64,000 bases of DNA, from sequence record MZ501109; one strand, written 5' to 3'. A program made the translations under genes and the position numbers. The notes beneath the pieces are model-generated. The model had not been told where the DNA came from. It worked only from the letters and a program-made list of their open reading frames with translations, and did no database searches. This document shows, one piece after another, positions 8,660 through 32,052 of the stretch. This DNA is from Escherichia phage TrudiRoth. Every line of letters starts with the position of its first letter. Within the stretch, counting starts at the first letter, position 1.

Positions 8660-9510
8660 AGCAATATATTGAAACTGGAAAACGTATTCTTGAAGAGGGT
8701 GTATGGGTAACGAATCCTAGAACAGGGGTTCGTTGCCTAACCATTATTGATGCAGACTTTACCTTTAACGTAGGAGCAGGAGAACTGCCGCTAGTAACTA
8801 CTCGTAAAGCATTTGCTAAACAAGCAATAATGGAAATGATCGGATATCTCCGTGGGTACGACTCAGCAGCACAATTCCGCGCTATTGGTGTTAATACATG
8901 GAATGCTAATGCAAATGAAAATATTGCCTGGCTAGGTAATCCATTCCGTAAAGGCGAGGATGATATGGGACGAGTCTATGGTGTTCAAGGACGTCATTGG
9001 ACTAATTCTGATGGTATGGTATTTGATCAGTTAGCCAAAGTCTATCATAATTTGAAAAGAGGGATTGACGATCGTGGAGAAATTTTAACTTTTTGGAACC
9101 CTGGGGAATTTCGTAAAGGATGCCTACGTCCGTGTATGCATACCCATCAATTCTCTATTTTAGGTGATACACTATACCTAAACTCTTTCCAGAGGTCTAA
9201 TGATTTCTTGCTGGGCCAAGTATTTAATATGGTGCAATGCTATGCACTTCTAGCTATTATGGCACAGATTACAGGTCTTAAGCCAGGTATTGCTCGTCAA
9301 AAGATTATTAATCTTCATATCTATGAAGATCAGTATAATGTTCTGATGGAGCACAAGCAATTCGATCGTGAACCTTTTGCACCTCCTACTTTAGAAATCA
9401 ATCCAAATATTAGAACTTTGGATGATGTATTAACGTGGGTAAGTAAGGATGATTTTACTGTTCGTGGCTATGAACACCATCCTGCTATTGCATATCCATT
9501 TACGGTGTAA
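8656..9510 (+). CDS. thyA: thymidylate synthase
   Basis: 284 aa, catalytic [10 protein letters not shown] (PCH) motif, no intron interruption visible. Confidence 0.85.
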
Positions 9511-19314: not shown

Positions 19315-20370
19315 ATGATTAAGACTGGTCTAGTAATTGGTAAGTTCGCACCATTAACACGTGGTCATATTAACCTAATAAACACAGCAGCAACTATGTG
19401 TGAACGAGTTATAGTTGTAGTTAGTCATGATAATCGCTGGCTGGATAAACAAAACACACGTGATCAGGAAGTCTTACAGTTAAAGAACCGACTTCGTTGG
19501 TTAGAACAAACTTACGCGGATATTGAGCACATTTCGGTAGAGTACATTATTGAAGATGATATTCCTGAATATCCGAATGGTTGGCCGGAATATGCTAGAA
19601 TACTTAATGAAAATTATGGACATTTGCCTGAGATCACCATTTTCTCTAGCGAACTAGACTATGATGCAGAATATAAGAAATATCTGCCGAAGTTTGGTCA
19701 TTATATTGTAGATTCTGATCGGACTCGTGTTCCAATCTCAGCTACAATGATTCGTAATGATCTTATGAAGTATTGGGAGTTTCTTCCTAGCGTAGTTCGT
19801 AAAGATTACGTGCGTAAGGTTGTAATCATTGGGACTGAAAGCTCGGGAAAGACTACTTTAACAAAATACCTTGCGAAGCTATACAACACTTCGTGGGTAG
19901 AAGAATATGGTCGAACGTATTGTGAAGTTGATCTAGTTGGTAACGAAAATCTGCTTACCAGCGAAGATTATAGTAAAATTGCGTTCAGACACAAAGAGCT
20001 AGAGTTTGAAGCAGAACGTACTGCAAATAAGATCATGTTTGTGGATACAAATGCTTTTATTACTGAGTTCTACCACAGACTTTATGAACATAGTAAGAAT
20101 CCTGTGGTTACAGCAATTGCAAAAGAAGAACATTATGATTTAGTAATTGTTCTAGCGCCTACTGTCAAGTGGGTAGATGATGGTTTACGTATTAACTCCG
20201 ATCGTTCAATTACTTCTGAACTGTTCGAGCAGATGAAGAAAGAATTTCCAAATCAGTTCCCTGAAGGGCGTACTGTTTACATCGACTCTCCGGACTACAA
20301 AGTTCGTATGGACGAAGCAGTAAACGCAGTAGACTGGCTGATTCATCACTTTAACGTTGGAGAGTTTTAA
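19315..20370 (+). CDS. nadR: NadR-like bifunctional NMN adenylyltransferase / ribosylnicotinamide kinase
   Basis: Nucleotidyltransferase motif GKFAPLTRGHINLI and P-loop kinase domain GTESSGKTTL; ATG 19315 after promoter 19256-19284. Confidence 0.75.
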   Translation: MIKTGLVIGKFAPLTRGHINLINTAATMCERVIVVVSHDNRWLDKQNTRDQEVLQLKNRLRWLEQTYADIEHISVEYIIEDDIPEYPNGWPEYARILNENYGHLPEITIFSSELDYDAEYKKYLPKFGHYIVDSDRTRVPISATMIRNDLMKYWEFLPSVVRKDYVRKVVIIGTESSGKTTLTKYLAKLYNTSWVEEYGRTYCEVDLVGNENLLTSEDYSKIAFRHKELEFEAERTANKIMFVDTNAFITEFYHRLYEHSKNPVVTAIAKEEHYDLVIVLAPTVKWVDDGLRINSDRSITSELFEQMKKEFPNQFPEGRTVYIDSPDYKVRMDEAVNAVDWLIHHFNVGEF

Positions 20371-20371
20371 T

Positions 20372-21049
20372 ATGACTAACTATCTCGTAAATGACTTTAA
20401 AAACTGGAAACCTCTGGAATATCTGTGGCTGTTCATAGCGGTTGTCTTCATTAGTTTAGCAAACTATAATGGTACAGCTCTAGATTGGGCTACTGCAATA
20501 ACCAATGTGGTTTGTGTTATTCTGGTTGCAAAAGGACGTGTTTCCAACTATATTTGGGGCTTAGTGGGTGTTCTTACATATGGTATTACAGCTTTAAACG
20601 CAGATCTTTATGGTAACGCTGCACTAAACCTGCTATACTACGTTCCTATGCAGTTTTATGGAATGTACTTATGGCATAAAAATAAGCCAAGTAATCTGCC
20701 GGATGTTCCAACTAAGGTTCTGACTAAAGCCCAAGCTCTGCTGACTCTAGGGATTCTAGCAGTAGCCACGTTAGGGTATGGTAGTTTCTTAGCTACTACG
20801 GCTGATCCATTTCCAATGTTGGATGCATTTACTGCGGTAGGTAGTGTGATCGCTATGTGGCTTATGGTTAAGCAGTATGCCGAGCAGTGGCTGATCTGGA
20901 TTGCTATTAACATTGGTACTGTGTACATTTGGCTTGTAACTGCTCAATCTACAGGTGCATCTTATGCAATCCTAGCAATGTGGCTAGTATTCTTAGGTAA
21001 CTCTATTATGGGAGCCTATAAAGGATACTTTGTACGCGTTAACAAATAA
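20372..21049 (+). CDS. pnuC: nicotinamide riboside transporter PnuC
   Basis: About 7 TM segments, PnuC-like WxxxY-rich profile; overlaps nadR stop; ORF opens at TTG 20357. Confidence 0.75.
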   Translation: MTNYLVNDFKNWKPLEYLWLFIAVVFISLANYNGTALDWATAITNVVCVILVAKGRVSNYIWGLVGVLTYGITALNADLYGNAALNLLYYVPMQFYGMYLWHKNKPSNLPDVPTKVLTKAQALLTLGILAVATLGYGSFLATTADPFPMLDAFTAVGSVIAMWLMVKQYAEQWLIWIAINIGTVYIWLVTAQSTGASYAILAMWLVFLGNSIMGAYKGYFVRVNK

Positions 21050-21058
21050 AGTAGTTAT

Positions 21059-21082
21059 AGCCCTCGCTTAGAGGGCTATTAT
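21059..21082 (+). terminator. terminator-like hairpin after pnuC
   Basis: AGCCCUC-GCUUA-GAGGGCU followed by AUUAUA. Confidence 0.5.
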
Positions 21083-21096
21083 ACAGAAATTTTCAC

Positions 21097-21125
21097 TTGC
21101 TTAATATAGAAAATTTCTGTATAAT
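21097..21125 (+). promoter_or_regulatory. sigma70-type early promoter
   Basis: -35 TTGCTT, 17 bp, -10 TATAAT. Confidence 0.65.
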
Positions 21126-21155
21126 ATATTTATAAATTTGAGAGAGGAATCAAAT

Positions 21156-21452
21156 ATGAAACGCATTGTACTTGCATTGACTCTAGTATCTACTTCTGTA
21201 TTTGCTGCTCCACAACAGGAACTTTGTCAAGTTCAAGTTTGTAATAAGCTAGAACGATTTACTCTAGACATTTGGTCACATATTAAAGATAATATGGGTG
21301 AACAGTGTTTTGATATTGTTCTGCCAAAAGAACAAGCTGTTCCTGGTGCTGTTCTCAGTTCAGAATCACGTTGGTGGCAGGGTTCTTCTATCAATCCAAC
21401 TAAGAAGTCAGTGACACGTATCAAACAAGTATATCAGTGCAATGTTCAGTAA
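21156..21452 (+). CDS. secreted small protein
   Basis: Signal peptide MKRIVLALTLVSTSVFAAP and six Cys. Confidence 0.5.
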   Translation: MKRIVLALTLVSTSVFAAPQQELCQVQVCNKLERFTLDIWSHIKDNMGEQCFDIVLPKEQAVPGAVLSSESRWWQGSSINPTKKSVTRIKQVYQCNVQ

Positions 21453-21460
21453 AATTTCAC

Positions 21461-21489
21461 TTGCTTAATGCCGAAATTTTCTGTATAAT
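21461..21489 (+). promoter_or_regulatory. sigma70-type early promoter (tRNA-Ser/tRNA-Met unit)
   Basis: -35 TTGCTT, 17 bp, -10 TATAAT directly upstream of the tRNA at 21504. Confidence 0.65.
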
Positions 21490-21503
21490 ATATTCATAAT
21501 TTC

Positions 21504-21597
21504 GGAAGATTAACCCTAAAGGTAAGGGAGCTGTTTGCTAAACAGCTAGTAGCTGTGGAAACACGGTGTGCCAGTTCGAGTCTGGCATCTTCCTCCA
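21504..21597 (+). tRNA. tRNA-Ser (anticodon GCU)
   Basis: Acceptor GGAAGAU/AUCUUCC, anticodon stem GCUGU/ACAGC with loop UUGCUAA, long variable arm, T-arm GCCAG-UUCGAGU-CUGGC, CCA. Confidence 0.75.
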
Positions 21598-21602
21598 AAT
21601 TT

Positions 21603-21680
21603 GGTTCTCAAGCTCATTTGGTATGAGCCGTCGCCTCATAAGCGAAAGGTAGGTAGGTTCGAATCCTCCGGGAGCCACCA
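21603..21680 (+). tRNA. tRNA-Met/Ile2 (anticodon CAU)
   Basis: D-stem GCUC/GAGC, anticodon loop CUCAUAA, T-loop UUCGAAU, CCA. Confidence 0.65.
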
Positions 21681-21697
21681 ATTAACTAGGAGACGAT

Positions 21698-21883
21698 ATG
21701 TCTAAGTTTCAGGAATTGAAGCAGGAACTAGAAGAGTGTGCCTGCCCAAAATGCTTCGGAGCAGGTGAATGGAACGATGCTGAACCTGGTGATACATGGT
21801 ATAATACATACGTTTGTACACATTGTAATGGTTCTGGTATTAATCCTGAATGCGGTATTTCTCTAGGTATTGAGCGAGGCTAA
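21698..21883 (+). CDS. zinc-ribbon protein
   Basis: 61 aa with CACPKC...CTHCNGSG. Confidence 0.45.
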   Translation: MSKFQELKQELEECACPKCFGAGEWNDAEPGDTWYNTYVCTHCNGSGINPECGISLGIERG

Positions 21884-22217
21884 GATGGATATTTACACTA
21901 CACCAGCAGTAAACCTGATTGGCTCTTGCCTTGTGCATTTCCGCTTCTTCCAAACGGATGATAGCAAAGAGGAGTATACCTATCCTCTGATGGATTTTCA
22001 GATTGAGGACTTCTTCCGTGAAGTGCGTAATATCTCTGAGAACTTCTATTATGGCATGGATAAGGAAGACTTTGACATTGAGTTCCCTATAATCTCTCGT
22101 TATTTCCTAGAGCAGTCCGACGCTCGGTTTGAGAAGATTGAACACATGGAAGTAGCCTGGGCTATCCAGTTCGAAATTACTGGCTTTGCTCGATACATTC
22201 AAGGTTACGAACTATGA
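21870..22217 (+). CDS. hypothetical protein
   Basis: 115-aa ORF overlapping the previous stop. Confidence 0.45.
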   Translation: MSEAKMDIYTTPAVNLIGSCLVHFRFFQTDDSKEEYTYPLMDFQIEDFFREVRNISENFYYGMDKEDFDIEFPIISRYFLEQSDARFEKIEHMEVAWAIQFEITGFARYIQGYEL

Positions 22218-22309
22218 AATTAAAAGATTATTATATTGGTTGGTTTGTAGGACTAATAGTAGGATTTTCACTGGGCTACAACTTGTATCAACTGATAAAC
22301 TGATTACAT

Positions 22310-22386
22310 GGGGGTGTAATCGAATTGGCATAGGTACTGGACTTAAAATTCAGGTTTTGTGGGTTCGAATCCCACCACCCCTACCA
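22310..22386 (+). tRNA. tRNA with anticodon UAA (Leu?), class I geometry
   Basis: Acceptor GGGGGUG/CACCCCU, anticodon stem CUGGA/UUCAG with loop CUUAAAA, T-arm GUGGG-UUCGAAU-CCCAC, A73, CCA; D-arm poorly paired. Confidence 0.45.
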
Positions 22387-22537
22387 AATTAAGGAAATAA
22401 AATGAAAGCTATTAAGAAAGCACTGCGTAAATTTATGTATTGTCGTTTTCATAGCATCAAGGCTTCAACTAATGGTACTACTTACGATCGCTATGATCCT
22501 AAGTTTGGCTTACATTCTAAATAACTGGAGAAAACAA

Positions 22538-22744
22538 ATGGCTAATCCTGAAATTACGGCACAACGCTTTATGCTGAAAGGAATTATTGCTGAAGCAGGC
22601 ATGACAGAAGAAGTTGCAGATTTTCAAAAGCAATTCCTCAATATTCTCACTCAAGCCAAAGAGCTAGGAGAGAAAGAACATGGCGCGGCTATTATGGCAA
22701 TCACATTGGTTGGGCTTGATCTGGCTGAAGAATCAGGAGTTTAA
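22538..22744 (+). CDS. hypothetical protein
   Basis: ORF opens at 22472; ATG 22538 has RBS GGAG. Confidence 0.4.
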   Translation: MANPEITAQRFMLKGIIAEAGMTEEVADFQKQFLNILTQAKELGEKEHGAAIMAITLVGLDLAEESGV

Positions 22745-22774
22745 CTCCTCCAAGCAGAAATTTTAAAAATGTAC

Positions 22775-22804
22775 TTGCTTTTTACTTAAGATTTCTGCTA
22801 TAAT
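22775..22804 (+). promoter_or_regulatory. sigma70-type early promoter
   Basis: -35 TTGCTT, 18 bp, -10 TATAAT. Confidence 0.6.
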
Positions 22805-22833
22805 AGTTATATAAGTTGATGAGAGGAATCAGA

Positions 22834-23100
22834 ATGTTAAAACGTTTTGCAGCAACTGGTATTGAAAGCTCAGTATGTAAATCCTGGGGTGGTTGGGAAG
22901 GTGAGATCGAGTGGCTTTATTTCTACAATGTAGAACTTCTTCCAGAGATCAAAGCTCAATGTATTGAGGCTGGTATGGCTCCTGATGCTACGGCTGATGT
23001 TGAAATCAGCATGAATAAGCTAGAGGGTCGAGTAGTCACTGTTACTGATGAAGGTGAAGAGGTATTCGAACTTCCATTCACTTTGAAAGTCACTCCTTAA
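22834..23100 (+). CDS. hypothetical protein
   Basis: 88 aa behind promoter 22775-22804 and the conserved leader GATGAGAGGAATCA. Confidence 0.5.
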   Translation: MLKRFAATGIESSVCKSWGGWEGEIEWLYFYNVELLPEIKAQCIEAGMAPDATADVEISMNKLEGRVVTVTDEGEEVFELPFTLKVTP

Positions 23101-23145
23101 TTTGATTAACTGATACAGCACTGAGCAAGTTCTTTAAAATTTGAC

Positions 23146-23174
23146 TTGCTCAGTCCTTCAAAACTTGATATAAT
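23146..23174 (+). promoter_or_regulatory. sigma70-type early promoter (tRNA cluster)
   Basis: -35 TTGCTC, 17 bp, -10 TATAAT; -35 lies inside a 10-bp inverted repeat. Confidence 0.55.
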
Positions 23175-23238
23175 AGTTATCTAATTTGGAAAACATATTT
23201 AAAAGTGTTTAAACTAGTATTTGAATATTTCTAAATAT

Positions 23239-23329
23239 GTTGGATTAGTATCGTAGAGGTAGCGAAGCAGACTGTAAATCTGCCGACTCGGAAGGGTCTC
23301 GGGTGGTTCGACTCCATCATCCAACACCA
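23239..23329 (+). tRNA. tRNA-Tyr (anticodon GUA)
   Basis: Acceptor GUUGGAU/AUCCAAC, anticodon stem GCAGA/UCUGC with loop CUGUAAA, long variable arm, CCA. Confidence 0.75.
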
Positions 23330-23336
23330 AATTTAA

Positions 23337-23413
23337 GTCCTGTTAGACAAACTGGTAAAGTCACTACCCTTTCAAGGTAGGATTTGCGGGTTCGATCCCC
23401 GCACAGGACGCCA
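23337..23413 (+). tRNA. tRNA-Glu (anticodon UUC)
   Basis: Acceptor GUCCUGU/ACAGGAC, anticodon stem CUACC/GGUAG with loop CUUUCAA, T-arm GCGGG-UUCGAUC-CCCGC, CCA. Confidence 0.75.
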
Positions 23414-23421
23414 ATTTCTGC

Positions 23422-23498
23422 ATTCCTAGAGTGTTACTGGACAGCATGTCGGTCTCCAAAACCGTACGGTCTAGGTTCGAGTCCTAGTAGGTTTGCCA
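23422..23498 (+). tRNA. tRNA-like, anticodon CCA (Trp?), poorly paired
   Basis: T-arm CUAGG-UUCGAGU-CCUAG and CCA end are good; anticodon loop CUCCAAA; acceptor and D stems have mismatches. Confidence 0.3.
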
Positions 23499-23504
23499 AT
23501 ATTT

Positions 23505-23579
23505 GCACCTTTAGCTGAGATGGATTAGCGCTTGCCTGAAGAGCTTGAGAGGTTCGTTCGATACGAACAGGGTGCACCA
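23505..23579 (+). tRNA. tRNA-like, anticodon GAA (Phe?)
   Basis: Acceptor GCACCUU/AGGGUGC, T-arm GUUCG-UUCGAUA-CGAAC, CCA; anticodon loop CUGAAGA with two U-U mismatches in the stem. Confidence 0.4.
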
Positions 23580-23596
23580 ATTTGAAGGAGATGCTG

Positions 23597-23869
23597 ATGC
23601 ATCCTGAAAACTTCTTTATTTACTGTGCGGATAAGTCACTGAAACGCAGAATTAACAAAGTCTATCATTATCGTGCTAGTCAACAGCCTTATGTTTATGC
23701 TTTTGATGGAGATTACATCCCACTAGAACAGTTGGCCTGTGATTACATGGTTTTGAAGAACTTTGACGAGACAAAGATCTCAAGCGTTCATAATCGACAG
23801 AACCCGTTAACGTGGAAATATAAGAAGAAAAAGAAAGGCATCAAATTCTTAAAAAATGTAGTTGCTTAA
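23597..23869 (+). CDS. hypothetical protein
   Basis: RBS GAAGGAG then ATG 23597; ORF opens at 23582. Confidence 0.45.
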   Translation: MHPENFFIYCADKSLKRRINKVYHYRASQQPYVYAFDGDYIPLEQLACDYMVLKNFDETKISSVHNRQNPLTWKYKKKKKGIKFLKNVVA

Positions 23870-23890
23870 CCGCTTAAAGTTCTGTATAAT
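23862..23890 (+). promoter_or_regulatory. sigma70-type early promoter
   Basis: -35 TTGCTT, 17 bp, -10 TATAAT. Confidence 0.65.
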
Positions 23891-23919
23891 TATTACATAA
23901 ATTGAACTGGAGAAGCAAC

Positions 23920-24144
23920 ATGACAGAACAAGAATTGAAAGAACGTAAGCTGGTAATGCTTCGCTTACTAAACATTTTCTCTGGTATGGATGGTGGTATT
24001 GACTTCATTCAACTACGCACTTTTGTAGAAGAAGCAGAAGGCGAGGCTATCACTAGGATTCTTAAACATATGGGTTTGTTACTAGATGCTGCTAATGTGG
24101 CTACTCAATATAAACTCGAAGATTTACCGGAGCGTGTTAAATGA
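23920..24144 (+). CDS. hypothetical protein
   Basis: ATG 23920 behind promoter 23862-23890. Confidence 0.45.
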   Translation: MTEQELKERKLVMLRLLNIFSGMDGGIDFIQLRTFVEEAEGEAITRILKHMGLLLDAANVATQYKLEDLPERVK

Positions 24145-24332
24145 AAATGTTAGTTAAATTTAAGTGTTGTGGTTCTGAACATATTTTCACTCGTTATAGA
24201 GAGTTTAAGATGTGTGAGTGCGGTAAATCAGGCTACGATGCTGGAGATGGCTATTATGCTAGATCTATAGGACATTCTAAAGATCTAGAGTTTACTAATC
24301 TCGAAAAGCAAGATAAATCGACCGTTGGCTGA
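24141..24332 (+). CDS. zinc-ribbon protein
   Basis: 63 aa with CCGSEH...CECG; its stop overlaps the 5' end of a tRNA. Confidence 0.4.
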   Translation: MKMLVKFKCCGSEHIFTRYREFKMCECGKSGYDAGDGYYARSIGHSKDLEFTNLEKQDKSTVG

Positions 24333-24394
24333 ATGGCTTAGGCGGAGGCCTGCAAAACCTCCTTATGTGAGTTCGAATCTCATGCGGTCGTCCA
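24319..24394 (+). tRNA. tRNA-Cys (anticodon GCA)
   Basis: Acceptor CGACCGU/GCGGUCG, anticodon loop CUGCAAA, T-arm GUGAG-UUCGAAU-CUCAU, CCA; 5' end overlaps the stop of ORF 24141..24332. Confidence 0.5.
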
Positions 24395-24401
24395 AATTTT
24401 A

Positions 24402-24484
24402 GGGTCGTTAGCCAAGCGGTTTGGCGGTGGACTGTTAATCCATGTCGAAAGACAACGTAGGTTCGAATCCTACACGGCCCGCCA
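24402..24484 (+). tRNA. tRNA-Asn (anticodon GUU) with 13-nt variable region
   Basis: Acceptor GGGUCGU/ACGGCCC, D-stem GCCA/UGGC, anticodon loop CUGUUAA, variable GUCGAAAGACAAC, T-arm GUAGG-UUCGAAU-CCUAC, CCA. Confidence 0.5.
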
Positions 24485-24587
24485 TATTCTGTGTAGAGTT
24501 AAGTAAACCGGTAGCCAACCAGCTATCATTGCTGATATCGAATTCAGTCACAGATACCATTTTTCATTAACAACTGAGGAAATAGAT

Positions 24588-24773
24588 ATGACAACTCGTG
24601 CAATTGCTCGACTAGAAGCTGATCGTGATAATCTGATTAATAATATTAAGGTTCGTGGTAATATTATTAAGGCTCTGAAAGCTGAACTTCTTGAAGAACT
24701 TCAAGGTCAAGTAGAGCGTCGTGAAGCTCTAAAAGAGGTTGAGGAAGCTATCGAAAAACTCAAAACTGAGTAA
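24588..24773 (+). CDS. hypothetical coiled-coil protein
   Basis: 61-aa ORF. Confidence 0.4.
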   Translation: MTTRAIARLEADRDNLINNIKVRGNIIKALKAELLEELQGQVERREALKEVEEAIEKLKTE

Positions 24774-24776
24774 ATT

Positions 24777-25358
24777 ATGCACGGAATATCCTTACCCATT
24801 CCAGGGTTTGAGGAGTACTTAGTAAGTTTGGATGGGTTAGTATTTAGTATCAAATCAAACAAAATACTAACCCAAATAACCAGTAATTACGGATACTTAT
24901 CTATACGTCTCCATAAAAATGGTCAACAGAGAAATACCGGTGTACATAGGATTTTAGCATGTGCATTTAAGAAATTACCAAGTCTAGACTCTGAACTAGA
25001 AGTTGACCATATTAACACAGACATTACTTATTGGGGTCTTAATAACTTACAAGTGCTCACAAAAGAGCAGCATCTAGAAAAGACTTTAAAAGATAAAGGA
25101 TTTAGTAAACTAAACCATGATAATTGTTGTAAGGATTGTGGTAAAGCTATTTCTTTAAAAGCTGAAAAATGTCAGGAGTGCTCTTCACATAAACCAAAAG
25201 ATATCTCTATAACTAAAGAAATAATCGAGGTTACAGTAAGAGAGCTAGGCTGGTCAGGTGCAGGGAGAAAGTTAAGTTATTCAGATAATGGGTTGCGTAA
25301 AAGATACACTTCTTTAGGAGGCAATCCTAAAGAACTTAAAAAGTTAAAGGTACTATAG
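24777..25358 (+). CDS. HNH homing endonuclease (second family)
   Basis: N-terminal GFEEYLVSLDGLVFS, HNH core HRILACAF...VDHINTD...NL and C-terminal Cys cluster; sits inside the tRNA array. Confidence 0.65.
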   Translation: MHGISLPIPGFEEYLVSLDGLVFSIKSNKILTQITSNYGYLSIRLHKNGQQRNTGVHRILACAFKKLPSLDSELEVDHINTDITYWGLNNLQVLTKEQHLEKTLKDKGFSKLNHDNCCKDCGKAISLKAEKCQECSSHKPKDISITKEIIEVTVRELGWSGAGRKLSYSDNGLRKRYTSLGGNPKELKKLKVL

Positions 25359-25423
25359 TCTAACGGTTAGGATACTCCCCTGTCACGGGAGAGGTAGGGT
25401 TTCGATTACCCTTAGTACCGCCA
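25349..25423 (+). tRNA. tRNA-Asp (anticodon GUC)
   Basis: Acceptor GGUACUA/UAGUACC, anticodon stem CUCCC/GGGAG with loop CUGUCAC, T-arm AGGGU-UUCGAUU-ACCCU, CCA; 5' end overlaps the HNH gene stop. Confidence 0.75.
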
Positions 25424-25429
25424 AATTAT

Positions 25430-25506
25430 ACATCCATAGCTCAATTGGTTAGAGCTACCGCCTCTTAAGCGGTAGGTTCTAGGTTCAAGTCCTAGTGGGT
25501 GTACCA
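25430..25506 (+). tRNA. tRNA-Lys (anticodon CUU)
   Basis: Acceptor ACAUCCA/UGGGUGU, D-stem GCUC/GAGC, anticodon stem ACCGC/GCGGU with loop CUCUUAA, T-arm CUAGG-UUCAAGU-CCUAG, CCA. Confidence 0.75.
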
Positions 25507-25719
25507 AACATCAGAGCAGCGTGATGTACTGCAAAGACCCAAAGTCCGGGGTGGACTTCTTGATTCAAAGGAGCAGGCACTAATTATCATTCTAGCGTGG
25601 TGGAGAGGGGACACCAGCTTGCCGAGGGTAGAAGCTCGTTCGATTCGAGTGAAAGAATGGTTCTCGTAAATCCGCACAAGTGATAGCAGGTTCAAGTCCT
25701 GCCTAGATTGACTTATTAT

Positions 25720-25793
25720 GCGTTCGTAGTTAAAAGGTATAATTTTTGGTTGCCAACCAGAAGTTGAGGGTTCGATTCCCTCCGACCGCACCA
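25720..25793 (+). tRNA. tRNA-Gly (anticodon GCC)
   Basis: Acceptor GCGUUCG/CGACCGC (one mismatch), D-stem GUUA/UAAU, anticodon loop UUGCCAA, T-arm GAGGG-UUCGAUU-CCCUC, CCA. Confidence 0.7.
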
Positions 25794-26102
25794 AATCTAT
25801 CAAACCAAGCCTGCGCATTCGTGTAACAACTTGTGCGTCTGTAAGGTGATAGTAAACAAGCCACGGAGTTCCGGCCGTTCAACGTGGTAAAATCTTCTGA
25901 ATAACAGGTCGTGGATACCTCTTTGGAGGCTCAACGGAAACGCAGGAGTGTAAGTAAACGAAAGTTTACTTATTATGTAGGTTCCGATAGATCGGCGGGT
26001 CTATTCTGGCATTTAAGAGAAGTCTCGCAAACTTCTTTGTCAGCCGTGGGGTTGGTAGCCTCCAGGTGGCCTACACAATAAGTAAATTTATTAAAAATTA
26101 AT

Positions 26103-26131
26103 TTGCTATTCTGCTTAATTATCTGTATAAT
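26103..26131 (+). promoter_or_regulatory. sigma70-type early promoter
   Basis: -35 TTGCTA, 17 bp, -10 TATAAT. Confidence 0.6.
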
Positions 26132-26165
26132 ATATTTTATAAAGTGAATAGAAGGAAGTTAACAA

Positions 26166-26405
26166 ATGAAAAAATATTCAGAAGAATTTCTAGAAGATAT
26201 GGATTTACATTACCTGTTAACTTTGGTTTTAGAAGAAAAAATCTATGACCAATTTGATCTAGAAGGTCTTACAAAAGTAGATTGTATTCGTGCCCTTCTC
26301 ACTGTTGAAACTCGCTATTTCGAATGTCAACAGTGTGGTGAAGTTAATGAGTGCTCTTGGGAATGTCCAGAGTGTGGATATGACGATCTGCTTGAAACAG
26401 AATAA
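26166..26405 (+). CDS. zinc-ribbon protein
   Basis: 79 aa with CQQCG...CPECG; flanked by two near-identical tRNA-Lys(CUU) cores. Confidence 0.5.
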   Translation: MKKYSEEFLEDMDLHYLLTLVLEEKIYDQFDLEGLTKVDCIRALLTVETRYFECQQCGEVNECSWECPECGYDDLLETE

Positions 26406-26408
26406 TAT

Positions 26409-26485
26409 CTCCGATTAGCTCAATTGGTTAGAGCTACCGCCTCTTAAGCGGTAGGTTCTAGGTTCAAGTCCTTCATTGGAGACCA
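26409..26485 (+). tRNA. tRNA-Lys (anticodon CUU)-like second copy with degenerate T-stem
   Basis: 58-nt core identical to the tRNA at 25430-25506, but T-stem 3' strand is CCUUC (3 bp only) and the acceptor differs; CCA present. Confidence 0.45.
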
Positions 26486-26491
26486 AACAAT

Positions 26492-26569
26492 TGCGGGTTA
26501 GATCTTTGGTAGAGATCGCTAGTCTCATAAGCTAGAAAGAGGTAGGTTCGATTCCTGCACCCGCTTCCA
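26492..26569 (+). tRNA. tRNA-Met/Ile2 (anticodon CAU), unpaired 1-72
   Basis: D-stem GAUC/GAUC, anticodon stem CUAGU/GCUAG with loop CUCAUAA, T-arm GUAGG-UUCGAUU-CCUGC, U1-U72 mismatch, CCA. Confidence 0.65.
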
Positions 26570-26590
26570 ATTTAATAGAAGGATTTCGAA

Positions 26591-26755
26591 ATGAAATTAT
26601 TTCGTTTAAAAGTAAGTGATTTACGTTCTAGCAAAGATCGTAAGAAGTATCCACTAGCCCATTACGGTAAAGATGAAAACGAAGTGATGGCGGAATTTGG
26701 TATTAATCACCCTTACTTAAAAGTTTATTCTATTAAGGAAGTCTATGCTAATTAA
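26591..26755 (+). CDS. small hypothetical protein
   Basis: 54-aa ORF (below the track cutoff) translated by hand; RBS AAGGA. Confidence 0.3.
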   Translation: MKLFRLKVSDLRSSKDRKKYPLAHYGKDENEVMAEFGINHPYLKVYSIKEVYAN

Positions 26756-27218
26756 TAAAGTTTTAGCTGCCTTAAACCTTCCTGATAACTTCATTATAGA
26801 TGATAAGCTCATAAGAGCTTATATGAGCAAATATAACGAAATTTCAGGTAAAGAAGGTAAGTTAAAAACTTCAGAGTTTAGATTCTGTTATCGAATGGCA
26901 GCCTTAAATCTCTTAAAATATAAAAGGGAGCATAAAATACCTATAACGGAAGGTTTTGTATATGTAATTGGTAATCCAGCATGGCCAGGCATGTATAAAA
27001 TAGGTATGACTATAGATGTGAATGAGAGGTTAACAAGTTATCAAACTTATTCACCTAATAGAGACTACAAGCTATACCATTTCAGATTTTCGTCGGATAA
27101 AAGACGTACAGAGAAAGAATTACATAATCTTCTTAAAGATTATAGAGTATCTGGAGAATGGTTTGAAGTACCTGTACTAGATGCTTTTAAATTATTAGTA
27201 GAAAAATTGGATTGCTAG
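26745..27218 (+). CDS. T5orf172-domain (GIY-YIG superfamily) protein
   Basis: GFVYVIGNPAWPGMYKIGMTIDVNERL matches the GIY..YIG..R pattern. Confidence 0.65.
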   Translation: MLINKVLAALNLPDNFIIDDKLIRAYMSKYNEISGKEGKLKTSEFRFCYRMAALNLLKYKREHKIPITEGFVYVIGNPAWPGMYKIGMTIDVNERLTSYQTYSPNRDYKLYHFRFSSDKRRTEKELHNLLKDYRVSGEWFEVPVLDAFKLLVEKLDC

Positions 27219-27286
27219 CTCAACTGGATAAGAGTAGCGGACCTTTAATCCGTCAGTTCTGGGTTCGAATCCCAGGCAATCCACCA
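27209..27286 (+). tRNA. tRNA-Lys (anticodon UUU) with C at position 33
   Basis: Acceptor GGAUUGC/GCAAUCC, anticodon stem GCGGA/UCCGU with loop CCUUUAA, T-arm CUGGG-UUCGAAU-CCCAG, CCA; 5' end overlaps the T5orf172 gene stop. Confidence 0.7.
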
Positions 27287-27290
27287 AATT

Positions 27291-27364
27291 GCTCGGTTAG
27301 TTTAATGGGAGAACCCCGTCTTTACACGGCGGTTGCGATAGTTCGATTCTATCACCGAGTACCA
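27291..27364 (+). tRNA. tRNA-Val (anticodon UAC)
   Basis: Acceptor GCUCGGU/ACCGAGU, D-stem GUUU/GAAC, anticodon stem CCGUC/GGCGG with loop UUUACAC, T-arm GAUAG-UUCGAUU-CUAUC, CCA. Confidence 0.75.
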
Positions 27365-27382
27365 CTCAACTAAAATAAGGAA

Positions 27383-27625
27383 TTGCAAATGCAATTATCA
27401 TCTAAAGTTCAAGGTTTCTTCGCACATGCAACAGCAGAATTTGCTATTAGCAAGGGTTGGGATTTTGAGCAAGAACTTTCTGAGTTCTATAAAGATATAG
27501 ATATGAATACGCCATACATGGGACTCTCCACTGGTCAAGAGATCACAGAAGGCGATGTGTTCAAGGCAAGTCAAGGTGAGGTAACACCTAGTTTTGCCGC
27601 TTTTTTGGAGTGGCTTCACAATTAA
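27383..27625 (+). CDS. hypothetical protein
   Basis: 80-aa ORF with RBS AAGGAA. Confidence 0.45.
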   Translation: MQMQLSSKVQGFFAHATAEFAISKGWDFEQELSEFYKDIDMNTPYMGLSTGQEITEGDVFKASQGEVTPSFAAFLEWLHN

Positions 27626-27734
27626 AGAAGAAGCTCCAGATGATGATGTATTTATGCAAAGCATGCACTCTGGGAGTTCTGATATGTTATTTGTTAAAGA
27701 TGTACGACATATCCAAGAAGTGGTAAAAACGCAG

Positions 27735-27763
27735 TTGCTTAATGCTTAATTTCTTGTTATAAT
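27735..27763 (+). promoter_or_regulatory. sigma70-type early promoter driving an ORF-free leader
   Basis: -35 TTGCTT, 17 bp, -10 TATAAT; about 320 nt without an ORF before the next tRNA. Confidence 0.6.
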
Positions 27764-28097
27764 ATTTATATAAATTGATGCGAAAATAGCTGCCTAGATA
27801 CCAGGTGTATGACGTCTACACTAGCAGAGCTACCGAAAAAGAGATCCTCAGGATAAACGTCGTAGCAAAATTAGTCTGGTATCCATTAATTTAGTTCACT
27901 AAGGTATTAGCTCGACCTAGGACTGGCTGCCAAAAAGCACGATCCCTACGATTTGGGAGAAGTTCTAGATTAGTCCACTAGATTCAGCGGCAACTGAATA
28001 GTGTATCGGGTTTGTGAAGAGCAGCTATTCTCTACTGGCTAATGTCTGAGGTTAGTACGCACACCGAGCTAATAGCCTTAGTAAACTTAAAGAATTT

Positions 28098-28173
28098 GGG
28101 CGAATAGTGTCAGCGGGAGCACACCAGACTTGCAAGTCTGGTAGGGAGGGTTCGAGTCTCTCTTTGTCCACCA
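28098..28173 (+). tRNA. tRNA, isotype unresolved (Ala-UGC or Cys-GCA)
   Basis: Acceptor GGGCGAA/UUUGUCC, D-stem GUGU/ACAC, T-arm GAGGG-UUCGAGU-CUCUC, CCA; perfect anticodon stem CAGAC/GUCUG encloses only 6 nt (UUGCAA). Confidence 0.45.
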
Positions 28174-28188
28174 AATTAAAAAGAATGC

Positions 28189-28265
28189 GCGCGATTGACG
28201 GAATAGGTATACGTGTCAGCCTTAGAAGTTGAATTTTGAGGGTTCGAATCCCTTGTCGCGCACCA
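28189..28265 (+). tRNA. tRNA with anticodon UAG (Leu?), class I geometry
   Basis: Acceptor GCGCGAU/GUCGCGC, anticodon stem UCAGC/GUUGA with loop CUUAGAA, 5-nt variable loop, T-arm GAGGG-UUCGAAU-CCCUU, A73, CCA. Confidence 0.5.
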
Positions 28266-28390
28266 AATTTGATGGTCAGAGTAAATTAAACCTACTATCT
28301 CGGTTGAGCTGTTTTAATGGATTCGAATCCCAGCGAGGCGTAACTGCCTGGCGTGATAGAGGCATCATTCCACTAACATTGGAAAAACTA

Positions 28391-28621
28391 ATGAAACGAA
28401 AATTAAAAAAGTCTTATATAATTAAGATAAATAAGCTACGAAGTAGGGCAAAAGGATGGCCACTTCGAATATTAATTGCGGATAACCATATTAGATACCA
28501 TGCGGAACAACATCATTACAAACAGTGGGAGTCATACTGTCGCTCAAAAGCAGGTCGTTTAGATGGATCTTATGAGCTTCTATTTGGTAAGAAGCCTACT
28601 AGATTAGCTTTAGGTAAGTAA
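28391..28621 (+). CDS. small basic protein
   Basis: First in-frame ATG of track ORF 28229..28621; the upstream part overlaps a tRNA. Confidence 0.35.
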   Translation: MKRKLKKSYIIKINKLRSRAKGWPLRILIADNHIRYHAEQHHYKQWESYCRSKAGRLDGSYELLFGKKPTRLALGK

Positions 28622-28626
28622 TACTT

Positions 28627-28720
28627 GGAAAAGCAAATAGACTGGCGACTAAACCCGATTGGAAATCGGTTGAGTAATAGCAATATTGCCTTATGGGTTC
28701 AACTCCCATCTTTTCCGCCA
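28627..28720 (+). tRNA. tRNA-Ser (anticodon GGA)
   Basis: Acceptor GGAAAAG/CUUUUCC, anticodon loop UUGGAAA, long variable arm with GCAAUAUUGC hairpin, T-arm AUGGG-UUCAACU-CCCAU, G73, CCA. Confidence 0.7.
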
Positions 28721-28735
28721 AATATTGGAGTATAG

Positions 28736-29251
28736 ATGCTAACACAACAAGAATTAAAATCCGTGTTGTTATATAAACCAGATACTGGAGAGTTTTTCTG
28801 GAAATATAGATCTGATTTAGATAGTCAATGGAATAGTAAATATGCTGGAACTAGGGCAGGATTTATTAATGAACTAGGCTATTGGAAGATAACTCTAGGA
28901 AATACTAGCTGGTTAGCACATCGTCTAGCATTCTTATACATGACTGGGGAAATACCAGATCTAATTGACCACAAGGATCAAGATAAGTCCAATACTAAAT
29001 GGGATAACTTACGAATAGCCACTGTATCACAGAATCAGGCTAATGCTAAATTAAGGGTAGATAATACCTCTGGGTACAAAAATGTAACTTGGCATAAGCA
29101 AAGAAATAAGTGGAAAGTAGAAGTACGTAAAGATGGCAAACTCCATTATGGTGGACTTTTTACAGAACTAGATAAAGCTGTAAATAAAGCTAATAATCTT
29201 AGACGTGAGTTATTCGGGGAATTTGCAGTATATGAAGAGTTTATGGGGTAG
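28736..29251 (+). CDS. HNH homing endonuclease with AP2-like domain
   Basis: Shares AHRLAFLYMTGE, DHKDQDK, NLR and GYKNV motifs with 6460, 39902 and 42058. Confidence 0.7.
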   Translation: MLTQQELKSVLLYKPDTGEFFWKYRSDLDSQWNSKYAGTRAGFINELGYWKITLGNTSWLAHRLAFLYMTGEIPDLIDHKDQDKSNTKWDNLRIATVSQNQANAKLRVDNTSGYKNVTWHKQRNKWKVEVRKDGKLHYGGLFTELDKAVNKANNLRRELFGEFAVYEEFMG

Positions 29252-29341
29252 GTCAATCCAACGGCTGGCGCTGGACTCCGACTTGAAATCGGTTGATCGT
29301 AGTGATACGGTGTAAGGGTTCGATCCCCTTACCTACCTCCA
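29247..29341 (+). tRNA. tRNA-Ser (anticodon UGA)
   Basis: Acceptor GGUAGGU/ACCUACC, anticodon loop CUUGAAA, long variable arm, T-arm AAGGG-UUCGAUC-CCCUU, CCA; 5' end overlaps the HNH gene stop. Confidence 0.7.
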
Positions 29342-29361
29342 ATTAACTATAAGGAATCCTT

Positions 29362-29535
29362 ATGAGCAAAACAGCTACTGTAACAATGAAGGATGGTACA
29401 AAATTTAAAGCATGTCTTCATGAAACAGATAATGGATGGAAGGCTTATTTGCCACACCTAGATTCCACTGGGTATGGAATGACCCAACGTGAAGCTATTG
29501 TTGATGCTTTAAATGAGGCTTCCGCTGGTTTATAA
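29362..29535 (+). CDS. small hypothetical protein
   Basis: 57-aa ORF translated by hand; RBS AAGGAA. Confidence 0.35.
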   Translation: MSKTATVTMKDGTKFKACLHETDNGWKAYLPHLDSTGYGMTQREAIVDALNEASAGL

Positions 29536-29794
29536 AAATTCTTGGAATATGCCGGAATTGGTAGACGGGACTGCCGAATAGGTTTACTAGGAACATCCAC
29601 TCCTAGAAATATACCTTAAAAGCGGTTGAGTTAAATGGTATAACTCATGAAGGTTCAAGTCCTTCTATTCCTTGATACATCAATGGCTCAAAGTGTAACG
29701 GTGCTATTTGATGCTCTTGGCAAGACTTCCCCGACATGCGTTCGGGAGTAAGCTGCTAAGACTAGAGTAGAAGAGTTTCAACAAGACAACGATA

Positions 29795-29869
29795 GCTCTT
29801 AAAGCATTGCTGGCGATGCAGTTGCCTTGTAAGCATCTGAACCGGGTTCGATTCCTAGTGGGAGCACCA
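29795..29869 (+). tRNA. tRNA-Thr (anticodon UGU)
   Basis: Acceptor GCUCUUA/UGGGAGC (two G-U pairs), D-stem GCAU/AUGC, anticodon loop CUUGUAA, T-loop UUCGAUU, CCA. Confidence 0.65.
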
Positions 29870-29885
29870 AAATTAAAAAATTCAT

Positions 29886-29914
29886 TTGCCTTCTCTCTTA
29901 TTTCTTGTTATTAT
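29886..29914 (+). promoter_or_regulatory. sigma70-type early promoter
   Basis: -35 TTGCCT, 17 bp, -10 TATTAT. Confidence 0.5.
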
Positions 29915-29944
29915 ATTTATATAAATTAATGAGAGGGAAACCAA

Positions 29945-30238
29945 ATGAAACGTTATCTTTCTGTTATGTTCCAAACTGGTGGTCAACGCTATACTTATGA
30001 ATTTCCATCTTCTTGGAAGATCAAAGAAGGTGATCAAGTAGTAGTGTTAACACCGCGTGATGGTTTCAAGGTAGTAACGGTTAAGCAAGTATTTCCAAAA
30101 GATCACGAACCATCTAAGGCTATTCAGTACAAGATGATTCATGGTCTGGTACGAAAAGTACCTAGAACAGAAGTCGAAGTAGATAAAACTGGGGAAGCTA
30201 AATACCAGTATACCTCTTACTTAGACGAGTTGTTATAA
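29945..30238 (+). CDS. hypothetical protein
   Basis: 97 aa behind promoter 29886-29914. Confidence 0.5.
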   Translation: MKRYLSVMFQTGGQRYTYEFPSSWKIKEGDQVVVLTPRDGFKVVTVKQVFPKDHEPSKAIQYKMIHGLVRKVPRTEVEVDKTGEAKYQYTSYLDELL

Positions 30239-30444
30239 TGGGAATTACTTTCACAGAAAAGATTATGGGCAATGGTGTTATGATCATTACCGCATGGGAT
30301 GGTAATCAGTGGTGTAGTGTTTCAGGTATTAAGCCTGAAGAACAAACACTAGAAAATATCTCAAAGATTAAGCGAAGAATGGCAGAACGTGCACGACTTC
30401 CAGGTGCGCCTAGAAATGGTAAACGTTCTGCAATTAAATGTTAA
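30238..30444 (+). CDS. hypothetical protein
   Basis: 68 aa, start-coupled. Confidence 0.45.
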   Translation: MGITFTEKIMGNGVMIITAWDGNQWCSVSGIKPEEQTLENISKIKRRMAERARLPGAPRNGKRSAIKC

Positions 30445-30445
30445 T

Positions 30446-30522
30446 GCTTCGGTAGCTTAGCGATCTAAAGCACTCGGCTGATAACCGAGAGATCGGGGGT
30501 TTAAATCCCTCCCGGAGTACCA
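30446..30522 (+). tRNA. tRNA-Ile (anticodon GAU) with UUUAAAU T-loop
   Basis: Acceptor GCUUCGG/CCGGAGU, D-stem GCUU/AAGC, anticodon stem CUCGG/CCGAG with loop CUGAUAA, T-arm GGGGG-UUUAAAU-CCCUC, CCA. Confidence 0.7.
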
Positions 30523-30558
30523 AATTTAGGAAGTAAGACTATGCGTCCAGGAAAGTTT

Positions 30559-30572
30559 AAAAAAAAAAAAAA
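30559..30572 (+). repeat. A14 homopolymer tract
   Basis: 14 consecutive A between tRNA-Ile and the third CAU tRNA, inside a 15-codon ORF (MRPGKFKKKKKLIGL). Confidence 0.9.
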
Positions 30573-30626
30573 GCTAATTGGTCTAAAGAGTATAAAGAAT
30601 ATTTACTTAGTCTAGTAAAACATAAT

Positions 30627-30702
30627 AGTTAGTTGGCAGAGTGGTTATGCACCTCCTTCATACGGAGCGACTACAGTGGTTCAAATCCACTACTAACTAC
30701 CA
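30627..30702 (+). tRNA. tRNA-Met/Ile2 (anticodon CAU)
   Basis: Acceptor AGUUAGU/ACUAACU, anticodon loop UUCAUAC, T-arm AGUGG-UUCAAAU-CCACU, CCA. Confidence 0.7.
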
Positions 30703-30740
30703 TAAAAAAGAGCTAGAGATAGCTAAATATAGGAGCAAGT

Positions 30741-30935
30741 GTGTTAACTGTTAAAATAATGTCTGCAAATGGTGGTGAAGAAATTCATGATGGTAATAGC
30801 GTAGGATTTAATCCTAAAAATAAGAGTATTCATGTCTCGGGATTAGATCAAGCCATATTCCTAAAAGAGGATGAAGTCGCCTACGTTATGAATCAGAACG
30901 GTAAAACAGTTTCTGTTTACTACGGTAAGCTGTAA
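30741..30935 (+). CDS. hypothetical protein
   Basis: 64 aa, GTG start after AGGAG. Confidence 0.4.
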   Translation: MLTVKIMSANGGEEIHDGNSVGFNPKNKSIHVSGLDQAIFLKEDEVAYVMNQNGKTVSVYYGKL

Positions 30936-31302
30936 AGAACAGAGGATCAGGTCATTGTACCAGATCCTGCTGAGAAGAGAGTCCACATTCTATAAATGGC
31001 CGGGCGTGACAGCAGGAAGTAGACTGCAACTCCATGCTATCCAGGAGTATAAATGTAGAAGCTAAGACTTTAGATAGCCATTGTCTTAGCGTGAGCAATC
31101 ACGTAGTTGCAACAGACCTGGAAGATCGCAACGTTAAAATCAAAGCTCCTGTGCTTATTAAACTGAATGGGACTATCAATCCACAAGCCGGACTACGAGC
31201 GATTATCGGGTATTCACTTAATAAGCAAGCCTGCCTTCCAGTTTTTATCTTGCTTCTGGGTTAACAAAAAGCTGAGCCAAATTCTAACATCAGGGAGATC
31301 TA

Positions 31303-31671
31303 ATGAAAGCATATCAAAGTCTTAAGTCTGGCGTAATTAACATTGTTCATAACAATCAGATCATTCAACTATATTCTAAAGATGGTGAACTTAAACAGAA
31401 AGTTCTAGTCGAAGATCTAGAAGGTATCACACCTCACTTTGACCCTGAGGCCTTTCGCATTGTAGATGTGGAAGTGGTTCCTCAAGTCGAGGGTGGTCAG
31501 CACCTAAATGTCAATGTGTTAAGCCGTGATCAGCTTTTGGATGCACAGAAACATCCTGAAAAATATCCTCAGTTGACCATCCGTGTCTCTGGCTATGCTG
31601 TTCGATTTAACGCATTGACGCGTGAACAACAGAACGACGTTATTAGTCGTACATTTACTCAGGCGATATAA
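31303..31671 (+). CDS. grcA: autonomous glycyl-radical cofactor GrcA/YfiD-like
   Basis: [12 protein letters not shown]...[37 protein letters not shown] closely matches the C-terminal glycyl-radical domain of GrcA/PFL; RVSGY radical site. Confidence 0.8.
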
Positions 31672-31752
31672 TGGGGTTTGGATACGATTTCTCCCAGCTA
31701 CGCAAGGTAGTCGAGCAAACTCCATTTATCTCCCAAGTTTTAGGAGAAATGT

Positions 31753-32052
31753 GTGGATCGAGCATTAAGACGCCATCACCGGCAACGTGTGAAAAACAAT
31801 CGCAAAAAGTATTGGACAGTCTTCCCACATGAAGAAAGTCCTAAGCGGTTAGGCATTATCACTACCACTCCTTGCATCTGTTCTTGTTGGATGTGTGGGA
31901 ATCCTCGCAAATACTATAAGAATAGTAAAGCAGGCATGAAAATCTCGGAGATTAAAAAGATGGATGCAATGATTATGGGCATCACCTTTACAGGTGGTAT
32001 CTCTGATGAATTCGACGGTTTTGTAACTCAGGATATTGTCGAAATTATCTAA
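31753..32052 (+). CDS. hypothetical protein
   Basis: 99 aa, GTG start; terminator follows. Confidence 0.35.
   Translation: MDRALRRHHRQRVKNNRKKYWTVFPHEESPKRLGIITTTPCICSCWMCGNPRKYYKNSKAGMKISEIKKMDAMIMGITFTGGISDEFDGFVTQDIVEII

Follow-up and report, generated by a model that had tools for sequence, protein, structure and literature searches.

Bacterial leucine tRNAs normally carry a long extra arm. A tRNA gene that has a leucine anticodon and no such arm raises the question of whether it makes a real tRNA, which amino acid that tRNA would receive and what it would do for its carrier. One such gene lies in the 64,000 nt of Escherichia phage TrudiRoth (sequence record MZ501109) that were analyzed here as a whole and are called the window below. 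The window contains the tRNA gene region of a T5-like phage (Demerecviridae). Its positions 20000-32000 match E. coli phage Shin27 with 97% identity over 78% of the query, and further matches are the Salmonella phages SP_Thor and bux and hundreds of related records. ARAGORN called 23 tRNA genes on the + strand between 17.8 and 30.7 kb, 22 of which were confirmed by Rfam at the gathering threshold. One of the calls is a 77 nt tRNA-Leu(tag) at exactly 28189-28265 on the + strand. The Rfam tRNA family RF00005 spans 28189-28262 end to end (model positions 1-71 of 71) with 55.6 bits, above the gathering score of 29 and in the upper half among the tRNA scores of this window; the E-value was 6.9e-10 in a search of 15 kb and 5.9e-11 in a second run.

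Read directly from the sequence, the acceptor stem pairs 28189-28195 with 28255-28261 in seven pairs, the last of which is U:G. The D arm consists of U8 G9, a 3 bp stem, a G13.A22 mismatch and the loop AAUAGGUAU; the anticodon stem pairs 28216-28220 with 28228-28232 in 5 bp, and the T arm at 28238-28254 has a 5 bp stem and the loop UUCGAAU. A73 at 28262 is followed by an encoded CCA at 28263-28265. Neither U8, A14, G18, G19 and U33 nor the T loop and CCA are missing, and the last base of the variable loop, U48, is able to form a Levitt pair with A15. Position 37 is A, whereas the host CUN-reading tRNALeu has G (m1G37). [quoted passage not shown] The sequence-only reading had described the gene as a 77 nt tRNA with the loop CUUAGAA, a 5 nt variable loop and A73, and every item proved correct by ARAGORN, Rfam and direct reading (Table 1). 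It had also placed a class I tRNA with a leucine anticodon at 22310, which we recovered with UAA as its anticodon. That there are two such genes thus stands, but the view of them as independent of each other does not, since they share the architecture of the D arm and the variable loop and are probably paralogues. The UAA tRNA is 100% identical in 290 phage records.

Table 1. Features in and around the class I tRNA-Leu(UAG) gene of the window
Feature	Coordinates	Strand	Basis or remark
Class I tRNA, Leu anticodon UAA, variable loop GUUUU, A73	22310..22386	+	ARAGORN, Rfam
Promoter P13b homologue: TTGCTT, 17 nt, TATAAT	27715..27780	+	annotated in BF23/T5 records; alignment
tRNA-Ala(UGC)-like gene	28098..28173	+	15 nt before the Leu tRNA; same Ala-then-Leu order in T5 and BF23
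Class I tRNA, anticodon UAG, A73, encoded CCA	28189..28265	+	ARAGORN, Rfam, cloverleaf covariation, BF23 tRNAL1 orthologue
Leu-type D arm including G26 at its 3' end	28196..28215	+	ARAGORN parses of ~90 tRNAs
Anticodon TAG (UAG) in loop CUUAGAA	28223..28225	+	sequence; ARAGORN anticodon position 35
Variable loop AUUUU, 5 nt	28233..28237	+	sequence; tRNA parses

The single-sequence minimum free energy (MFE) structure of the UAG tRNA is not the cloverleaf; the MFE fold has -21.6 kcal/mol versus -21.4 kcal/mol for the cloverleaf. Non-cloverleaf MFE structures are common for unmodified tRNA sequences. We scanned the viral contigs of IMG/VR with the pattern CTTAGAA-N12-GGGTTCGAATCCC and obtained at least 120 loci. 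Among the matches listed, 95 of the 98 distinct sequences were class I cloverleaves of 72-77 nt, and the other three were chance non-tRNA matches. When the 95 distinct class I UAG tRNAs among these matches were aligned with MAFFT, the cloverleaf was paired in 97.7% of the cells, and double (compensatory) changes were found at 18 of its 21 pairs. The remaining three are T-stem pairs, which lack double changes because the search pattern, which fixes the anticodon loop and the T loop, also fixed them and made them uninformative. In shuffled alignments of the same 95 sequences the observed value was reached in 0 of 500 cases on four of five measures and in 2 of 500 on the fifth, and in controls with slid partners 38-46% were paired.

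The MFE alternative fared differently on this alignment of the 95 listed sequences: only its acceptor stem was kept, and its other long helices were 55-63% paired with zero double changes. A helix of two pairs was 96% paired, but only owing to the conservation of G18G19, which it connects with the T loop. A fold with another anticodon was therefore rejected, as the margin of the MFE fold is just 0.2 kcal/mol and its helices are unsupported by covariation; no clearly more stable alternative was found. UAG thus lies in the anticodon position of a four-stem cloverleaf that is kept by compensatory substitutions, as the sequence-only reading had proposed when it argued against a mis-fold. The UAG gene is a real tRNA gene and, judged from its sequence and that of its homologues, almost certainly functional.

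To which amino acid the tRNA belongs was addressed with ~90 tRNAs parsed by ARAGORN from the window, T5, BF23, Shin27 and E. coli K-12, the last represented by three loci and not by its full set. The combination of U8 G9, a 3 bp D stem and an 11 nt ARAGORN D loop, GAAUnGGnAnA, occurred among these ~90 in leucine tRNAs only: E. coli leuQPV, leuZ and leuW, the class II Leu tRNA of T5, the Leu tRNA of Shin27, the class I Leu tRNA of BF23 and both class I genes of the window. The D arms read UGACG+GAAUAGGUAUA in the UAG gene and UAAUC+GAAUUGGCAUA in the UAA gene of the window, and UGGCG+GAAUUGGUAGA in E. coli leuQPV, and G18G19 has the same position in the D loop of the UAG tRNA as in E. coli tRNALeu. 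The UAG tRNA accordingly has the whole Leu-type D arm and tertiary core, i.e., the 3 bp D stem, the placement of G18G19, A14, A15:U48 and A20a, and the discriminator A73. In the viral class I UAG family (95 sequences among the matches listed), A73 is present in all 95, and the 15:48 pair is A:U in 94 and G:C in one. A15:U48 was nevertheless rejected as a Leu-specific mark, as several other tRNAs of the same phage carry A15 and U48; A15:U48 together with A73 is also found in other tRNAs of this AT-rich phage, e.g., those for Lys, Gly and Asp. The D-arm layout is the sole Leu-specific feature within the parsed sample. In a comparison that masked the anticodon loop and left out the variable region, the body of the UAG tRNA is 80.6% identical to its BF23 orthologue, and the best non-orthologous matches are E. 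coli tRNALeu(CAG) with 68.3% and tRNALeu(UAG) with 64.5%.

Like the window gene, the E. coli tRNAsLeu (leuW with UAG, leuZ with UAA and leuQPV with CAG) have G1-C72, C2-G71, G3-C70, A73, U8 G9, a 3 bp D stem with G13.A22 and the same D-loop spacing around G18G19, and their bodies match that of the window tRNA by 64-68%. They differ in their length of 85-87 nt, in their variable arms of 13-15 nt and, in leuW, in the loop UUUAGGU with G37. In its D-arm layout and identity elements, the sequence of the UAG tRNA hence resembles that of E. coli tRNALeu. Leucine identity in E. coli depends critically on A73 but requires neither the anticodon nor the long variable arm, and variants without both stay active (PMC9976931). 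Engineered E. coli tRNALeu devoid of the variable and anticodon arms is charged and edited by LeuRS if A73 and the tertiary contacts of the D and T loops are kept (PMC9976931); these laboratory constructs are a mechanistic precedent, whereas the window gene is natural. A natural class I case is animal mitochondrial tRNALeu, such as human mt-tRNALeu(UUR), whose identity depends on A73 and A14 without a long arm (PMC9976931), but it is served by a different synthetase, the mitochondrial LeuRS, and the resemblance does not imply homology to the window gene. By the identity rules set up on E. coli tRNALeu, we infer that the UAG tRNA would be charged with leucine by the host LeuRS. It is devoid of the determinants on which the other A73 systems depend.

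An orthologue is named tRNAL1 (tRNA-Leu, UAG) in the tRNA-region record of phage BF23 (NC_042564). It shares with the window copy the length of 77 nt, the class I shape, the loop CUUAGAA, a 5 nt variable loop ending in U, A73 and the encoded CCA, and it also lies directly after tRNA-Ala, downstream of the promoter P13b and upstream of a common flank. Over its full length of 77 nt, the window UAG tRNA is 83.1% identical to the copies of BF23 and of numerous other T5-like phages, and the syntenic order of P13b, stable RNA, tRNA-Ala, tRNA-Leu and 3' flank is retained. Between the window and BF23, the stems differ at the pairs 4:69 of the acceptor (C-G versus U-A), 11:24 of the D stem (C-G versus U-A) and 27:43 (U-A versus C-G), 29:41 (A-U versus G-C) and 30:40 (G:U versus a U.U mismatch) of the anticodon stem. 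Such compensatory differences are the pattern that would be expected of a functional, diverging tRNA.

According to a note in the same BF23 record (NC_042564), tRNAL1 becomes an effective amber suppressor when its anticodon is swapped for CUA. Amber suppression means that the BF23 molecule is processed, charged and used by the ribosome, with charging independent of the anticodon. The note names no inserted amino acid and applies to the BF23 copy only. As tRNAs with a CUA anticodon can be mischarged, e.g., by GlnRS or LysRS, we regard the suppressor result as compatible with anticodon-independent charging.

When the 77 nt gene was used as a query, 352 phage records were retrieved, among others of T5-like phages (~83% identity), Felixounavirus and GAP31/4MG-like phages. 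The annotation under the match was inspected in 60 records spread over this set: it was tRNA-Leu in 37, tRNA-OTHER in 3, tRNA-Pseudo-TAG in 2 and a protein-coding gene in 2; 11 had no feature at the position, and 5 were wholly unannotated. The UAG gene is thus a known type of phage tRNA with an uncommon shape and not a new kind of gene, as class I relatives are annotated as tRNA-Leu in T5-like phages, Felixounavirus and other phages. No full-length copy with more than 87% identity was present in the phage collection. The nearest copy, that of SelmaRatti, is 98.4% identical over 64 nt and truncated: a deletion between two GGTTCGAATCC repeats, reaching from the T loop of the tRNA to the downstream GGATTCGAATCC repeat, has taken away the 3' end of the Leu tRNA, and the gene is therefore dispensable in at least one relative. 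Blastn of the UAG tRNA against 5,426 E. coli genomes gave zero matches even at E = 10, indicating that it is not a recent copy of a tRNA of the E. coli host or of a prophage.

The slot next to tRNA-Ala is occupied by tRNA-Leu(UAG) genes of different lengths. The 77 nt class I gene is found there in BF23, SelmaRatti (as the truncated copy) and the window. T5 tRNAL1 (UAG; AY543070, AY692264) has the anticodon, the slot after tRNA-Ala, A73, A37 and the Leu-type D arm (UG, 3 bp and GAACUGGUAGA) in common with the window gene, but it is a class II tRNA of 85 nt with the 12 nt variable arm GCUUAAAUGCGU, and its masked body is 58.5% identical to that of the window copy. This T5-type class II allele is present in ~55 records at 90% identity or more. 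Shin27, the closest relative overall, carries in the corresponding part of its tRNA region an 81 nt tRNA-Leu(UAG) with an intermediate arm, i.e., a variable region of 8 nt, and the host-like loop UUUAGGU (positions 8634-8714 of locus L123). T5-like phages consequently carry at least three length classes of tRNA-Leu(UAG). Since genes of either class, with one and the same anticodon, can take each other's place in this slot, we consider a common function well supported. In T5, the corresponding region has annotated homing endonuclease genes, and an exchange of whole gene cassettes in the Leu-tRNA slot fits their presence.

Upstream of the two tRNA genes, the P13b block is invariant in a four-phage alignment of the window, BF23, T5 and SelmaRatti, and the P13b homologue is likely to serve as the promoter of the unit of stable RNA, tRNA-Ala and tRNA-Leu. 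A simple scan for consensus promoters and terminators did not flag it because its -35 hexamer fits the consensus at only three of six positions. Just downstream of P13b, at ~27781-27890 (+), two insertions lengthen the window and SelmaRatti by ~90 bases relative to T5 and BF23; they lie where the homology to the annotated stable 'RNA 2H' begins. The anticodon loop of the tRNA-Ala (CUUGCAAG, 8 nt) is longer by one G in its 3' part than the CUUGCAA loop of T5, and ARAGORN reported this tRNA as 'tRNA-?(Ala|Cys)(tgca)'. No phage record was 99% or more identical to this tRNA-Ala, the best reaching 97.4%; the 8 nt loop could be a private mutation, a sequencing error or the mark of a frameshift-prone or inactive tRNA. 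On the other side of the Leu tRNA, the flank at 28266-28345 (+), which is common to BF23, contains the T-arm-like repeat GGATTCGAATCC flanked by CTCG...CGAG. Neither ARAGORN nor Rfam called a tRNA for this repeat, which is possibly a relic of another tRNA. Further downstream, between the Leu and Ser tRNAs, an ORF of 76 aa at 28391-28621 (+) matches PHROG 7065 (function unknown) with an E-value of 3.4e-35; at its position T5 has the HNH homing endonuclease gene hegC (TflI), and BF23 has nothing.

Other tRNA genes of the window also vary among these phages. The tRNA-Asn(GUU) at 24402-24484 (+) is 83 nt long with a 12 nt variable region, UCGAAAGACAAC, an extended region in what is normally a class I isotype; it is identical in Shin27, and BF23 and T5 have a 78 nt Asn tRNA. 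A tRNA-Lys(CUU) occurs twice, at 25430-25506 and 26409-26485 (+), and the two copies agree in their D, anticodon and variable loops. The second precedes the Met tRNA (an initiator in T5 and BF23), a place where Shin27, T5 and BF23 have tRNA-Pro. The His-Arg-Gln-Gln-Gly block that lies between tRNA-Ser and tRNA-Thr in Shin27 is absent from the window, and no Pro, His or Gln tRNA was found in the window.

These observations are best explained if the UAG gene encodes a functional class I phage tRNA-Leu that is charged by the host LeuRS and represents a divergent allele (~83% identity) of BF23-type tRNAL1, a reading that we hold with high confidence on the basis of the sequence comparisons. The tRNA would be transcribed together with the neighboring tRNA-Ala from the conserved early promoter P13b and presumably processed to the 77 nt form, with CCA already encoded. 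It would then be aminoacylated with leucine by the host LeuRS through A73, the D arm and the tertiary core (A14, A15:U48, the placement of G18G19 and A20a), a recognition that should need neither the anticodon nor a long arm. The charged tRNA is predicted to decode CUA, and probably CUG via U34 wobble, and may add decoding capacity for CUA during infection.

We compared codon usage in 49 long non-overlapping ORFs of the window (GC 39%) with that in 46 ORFs of a single 49 kb E. coli K-12 region rich in ribosomal protein genes. CUA accounts for 18.6% of the Leu codons in the window (16.0 per 1000 codons) versus 2.5% in the K-12 region (2.7 per 1000), and UUA for 25.1% versus 11.1%, so that CUA is ~6-7 times commoner in the phage genes than in the sampled E. 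coli genes. E. coli K-12 reads CUA with a single-copy tRNA, leuW. Given the excess of CUA in the phage and this single copy, the phage tRNA should raise the decoding capacity, and the class I tRNAs with UAG and UAA cover exactly the two Leu codons with the greatest enrichment in the phage over the host. A benefit in codon supply, a classical role, is what we infer from these numbers.

The mosaic nature of the region might instead suggest that the gene is a tRNA pseudogene in decay, or its cloverleaf fortuitous, in a segment driven by homing endonucleases: the slot differs between T5, BF23, Shin27 and the window, the SelmaRatti copy is truncated, and the neighboring tRNA-Ala has an aberrant 8 nt anticodon loop. 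However, all four stems of the UAG tRNA are intact, its sole mismatch, G13.A22, also occurs in E. coli tRNALeu, its differences from BF23 are compensatory, its Rfam score of 55.6 bits lies in the upper half of the window tRNAs, and U8, A14, G18, G19, U33, the T loop and CCA are all retained. Decay or chance is thus very improbable. We likewise give hardly any credence to charging with an amino acid other than leucine owing to the absent class II arm, by which CUA would be mistranslated or recoded in the phage. The labels tRNA-OTHER (3) and tRNA-Pseudo-TAG (2) in the 60-record sample, where some pipelines give no isotype, would agree with it, but the tRNA has no G3:U70 as required for Ala and no long arm or G73 as for Ser, and its anticodon is unfit for Ile, Val, Met, Lys, Phe, Arg, Thr and Pro, so that the obvious alternatives are excluded by the E. 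coli identity rules (reviewed in part in PMC9976931). Moreover, the D arm is of the Leu type, the syntenic gene of T5 is a canonical tRNALeu, and CUA is used 16 times per 1000 codons in ordinary phage genes that are common to phages with the class II allele.

A further proposal concerns the benefit of the tRNA and overlaps the host-charged tRNA-Leu reading because the molecule would still be a leucine tRNA. Its main role might be counter-defense, in which a divergent replacement of the host tRNALeu(UAG) survives tRNA-targeting nucleases of the host or of competitors, the loop CUUAGAA in place of the host UUUAGGU and the absent long arm providing the escape. There is documented precedent in T5, whose own tRNAs let infection escape defenses that cleave tRNAs: tRNA-Lys counters PARIS, and tRNA-Tyr counters the retron Eco7. 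The anticodon loop is unlike that of the host leuW at positions 32, 37 and 38, and class I UAG tRNAs among the matches listed are concentrated in tRNA arrays of phages or of a mobile-element type in many phyla. Against this, the literature consulted described no bacterial tRNA nuclease specific for Leu or class II tRNAs, and in T5 the slot is held by a class II Leu(UAG). Schlafens were considered because the human proteins cleave type II tRNAs and a bacterial member is triggered by T5-like phages. The reported targets of this bacterial Schlafen (RorSlfn5) are the Lys, Ala, Met, Val, Phe and Ile tRNAs and not those for Leu or Ser, and a link to Schlafens was retained only as a low-probability speculation. 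Taken as the main benefit, counter-defense appears rather unlikely to us.

The same pattern scan, applied to one genome per bacterial or archaeal species, also gave at least 120 loci. Among the matches listed on genome contigs, ~108 of 110 distinct sequences were class I cloverleaves, ~107 of these 108 with A73. A cluster of at least six tRNA genes spanning no more than 8 kb was present at 76 of 120 genome loci versus 105 of 120 viral loci among the matches listed. From these counts in both scans, short-arm UAG tRNAs recur in phage-type or array-type clusters across many phyla. Among the matches listed, class I UAG tRNAs with A73 were common in dense tRNA arrays (loci L125-L244 on genome contigs and L002-L121 on viral contigs) of many bacterial lineages, e.g., Pseudonocardia, Pyrinomonadaceae, Planctomycetota, Sorangium and Erysipelotrichaceae. 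A Leu(UAA) gene often adjoins the class I UAG tRNA in arrays among the matches listed, and one array (L202) consists of eight tRNAs, all with Leu anticodons. Class I Leu tRNAs might on this view be a widespread architecture peculiar to phages and mobile tRNA arrays rather than a curiosity of the T5 group, the arm having possibly been lost under selection and not by neutral deletion. In favor of this reading, A73 and A15:U48 occur in nearly all of the matches listed, most of which belong to dense tRNA arrays, but we offer it as a tentative and rather doubtful one. If arm loss was selected, the reason may have been escape from nucleases, or from modification enzymes, for which the class II shape or the anticodon loop of the host serves as the recognition feature; other reasons might be the end of cross-recognition by SerRS or TyrRS or of the dependence on m1G37. 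A full-text search of a limited literature library returned no paper describing a short-arm phage tRNALeu, which is no proof of novelty. The wider class I UAG pattern may deserve a proper census.

Returning to the host-charged tRNA-Leu of the window, the short-arm shape is unusual for a leucine tRNA of a bacterial system, yet it is expected mechanistically from what is known of E. coli LeuRS, and relatives are annotated in hundreds of genomes. The gene should be annotated as tRNA-Leu(UAG), not as 'tRNA-OTHER', 'pseudo' or a hypothetical protein as in some records of its relatives. Compact tRNAs with anticodon-independent charging are potential parts for the engineering of suppressor and orthogonal tRNAs. 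The gene would also show, in a natural setting, that LeuRS identity in enterobacteria is independent of the long variable arm, and the class I, 81 nt and class II Leu(UAG) alleles, interchangeable in one T5-like slot, amount to a natural allele-swap experiment.
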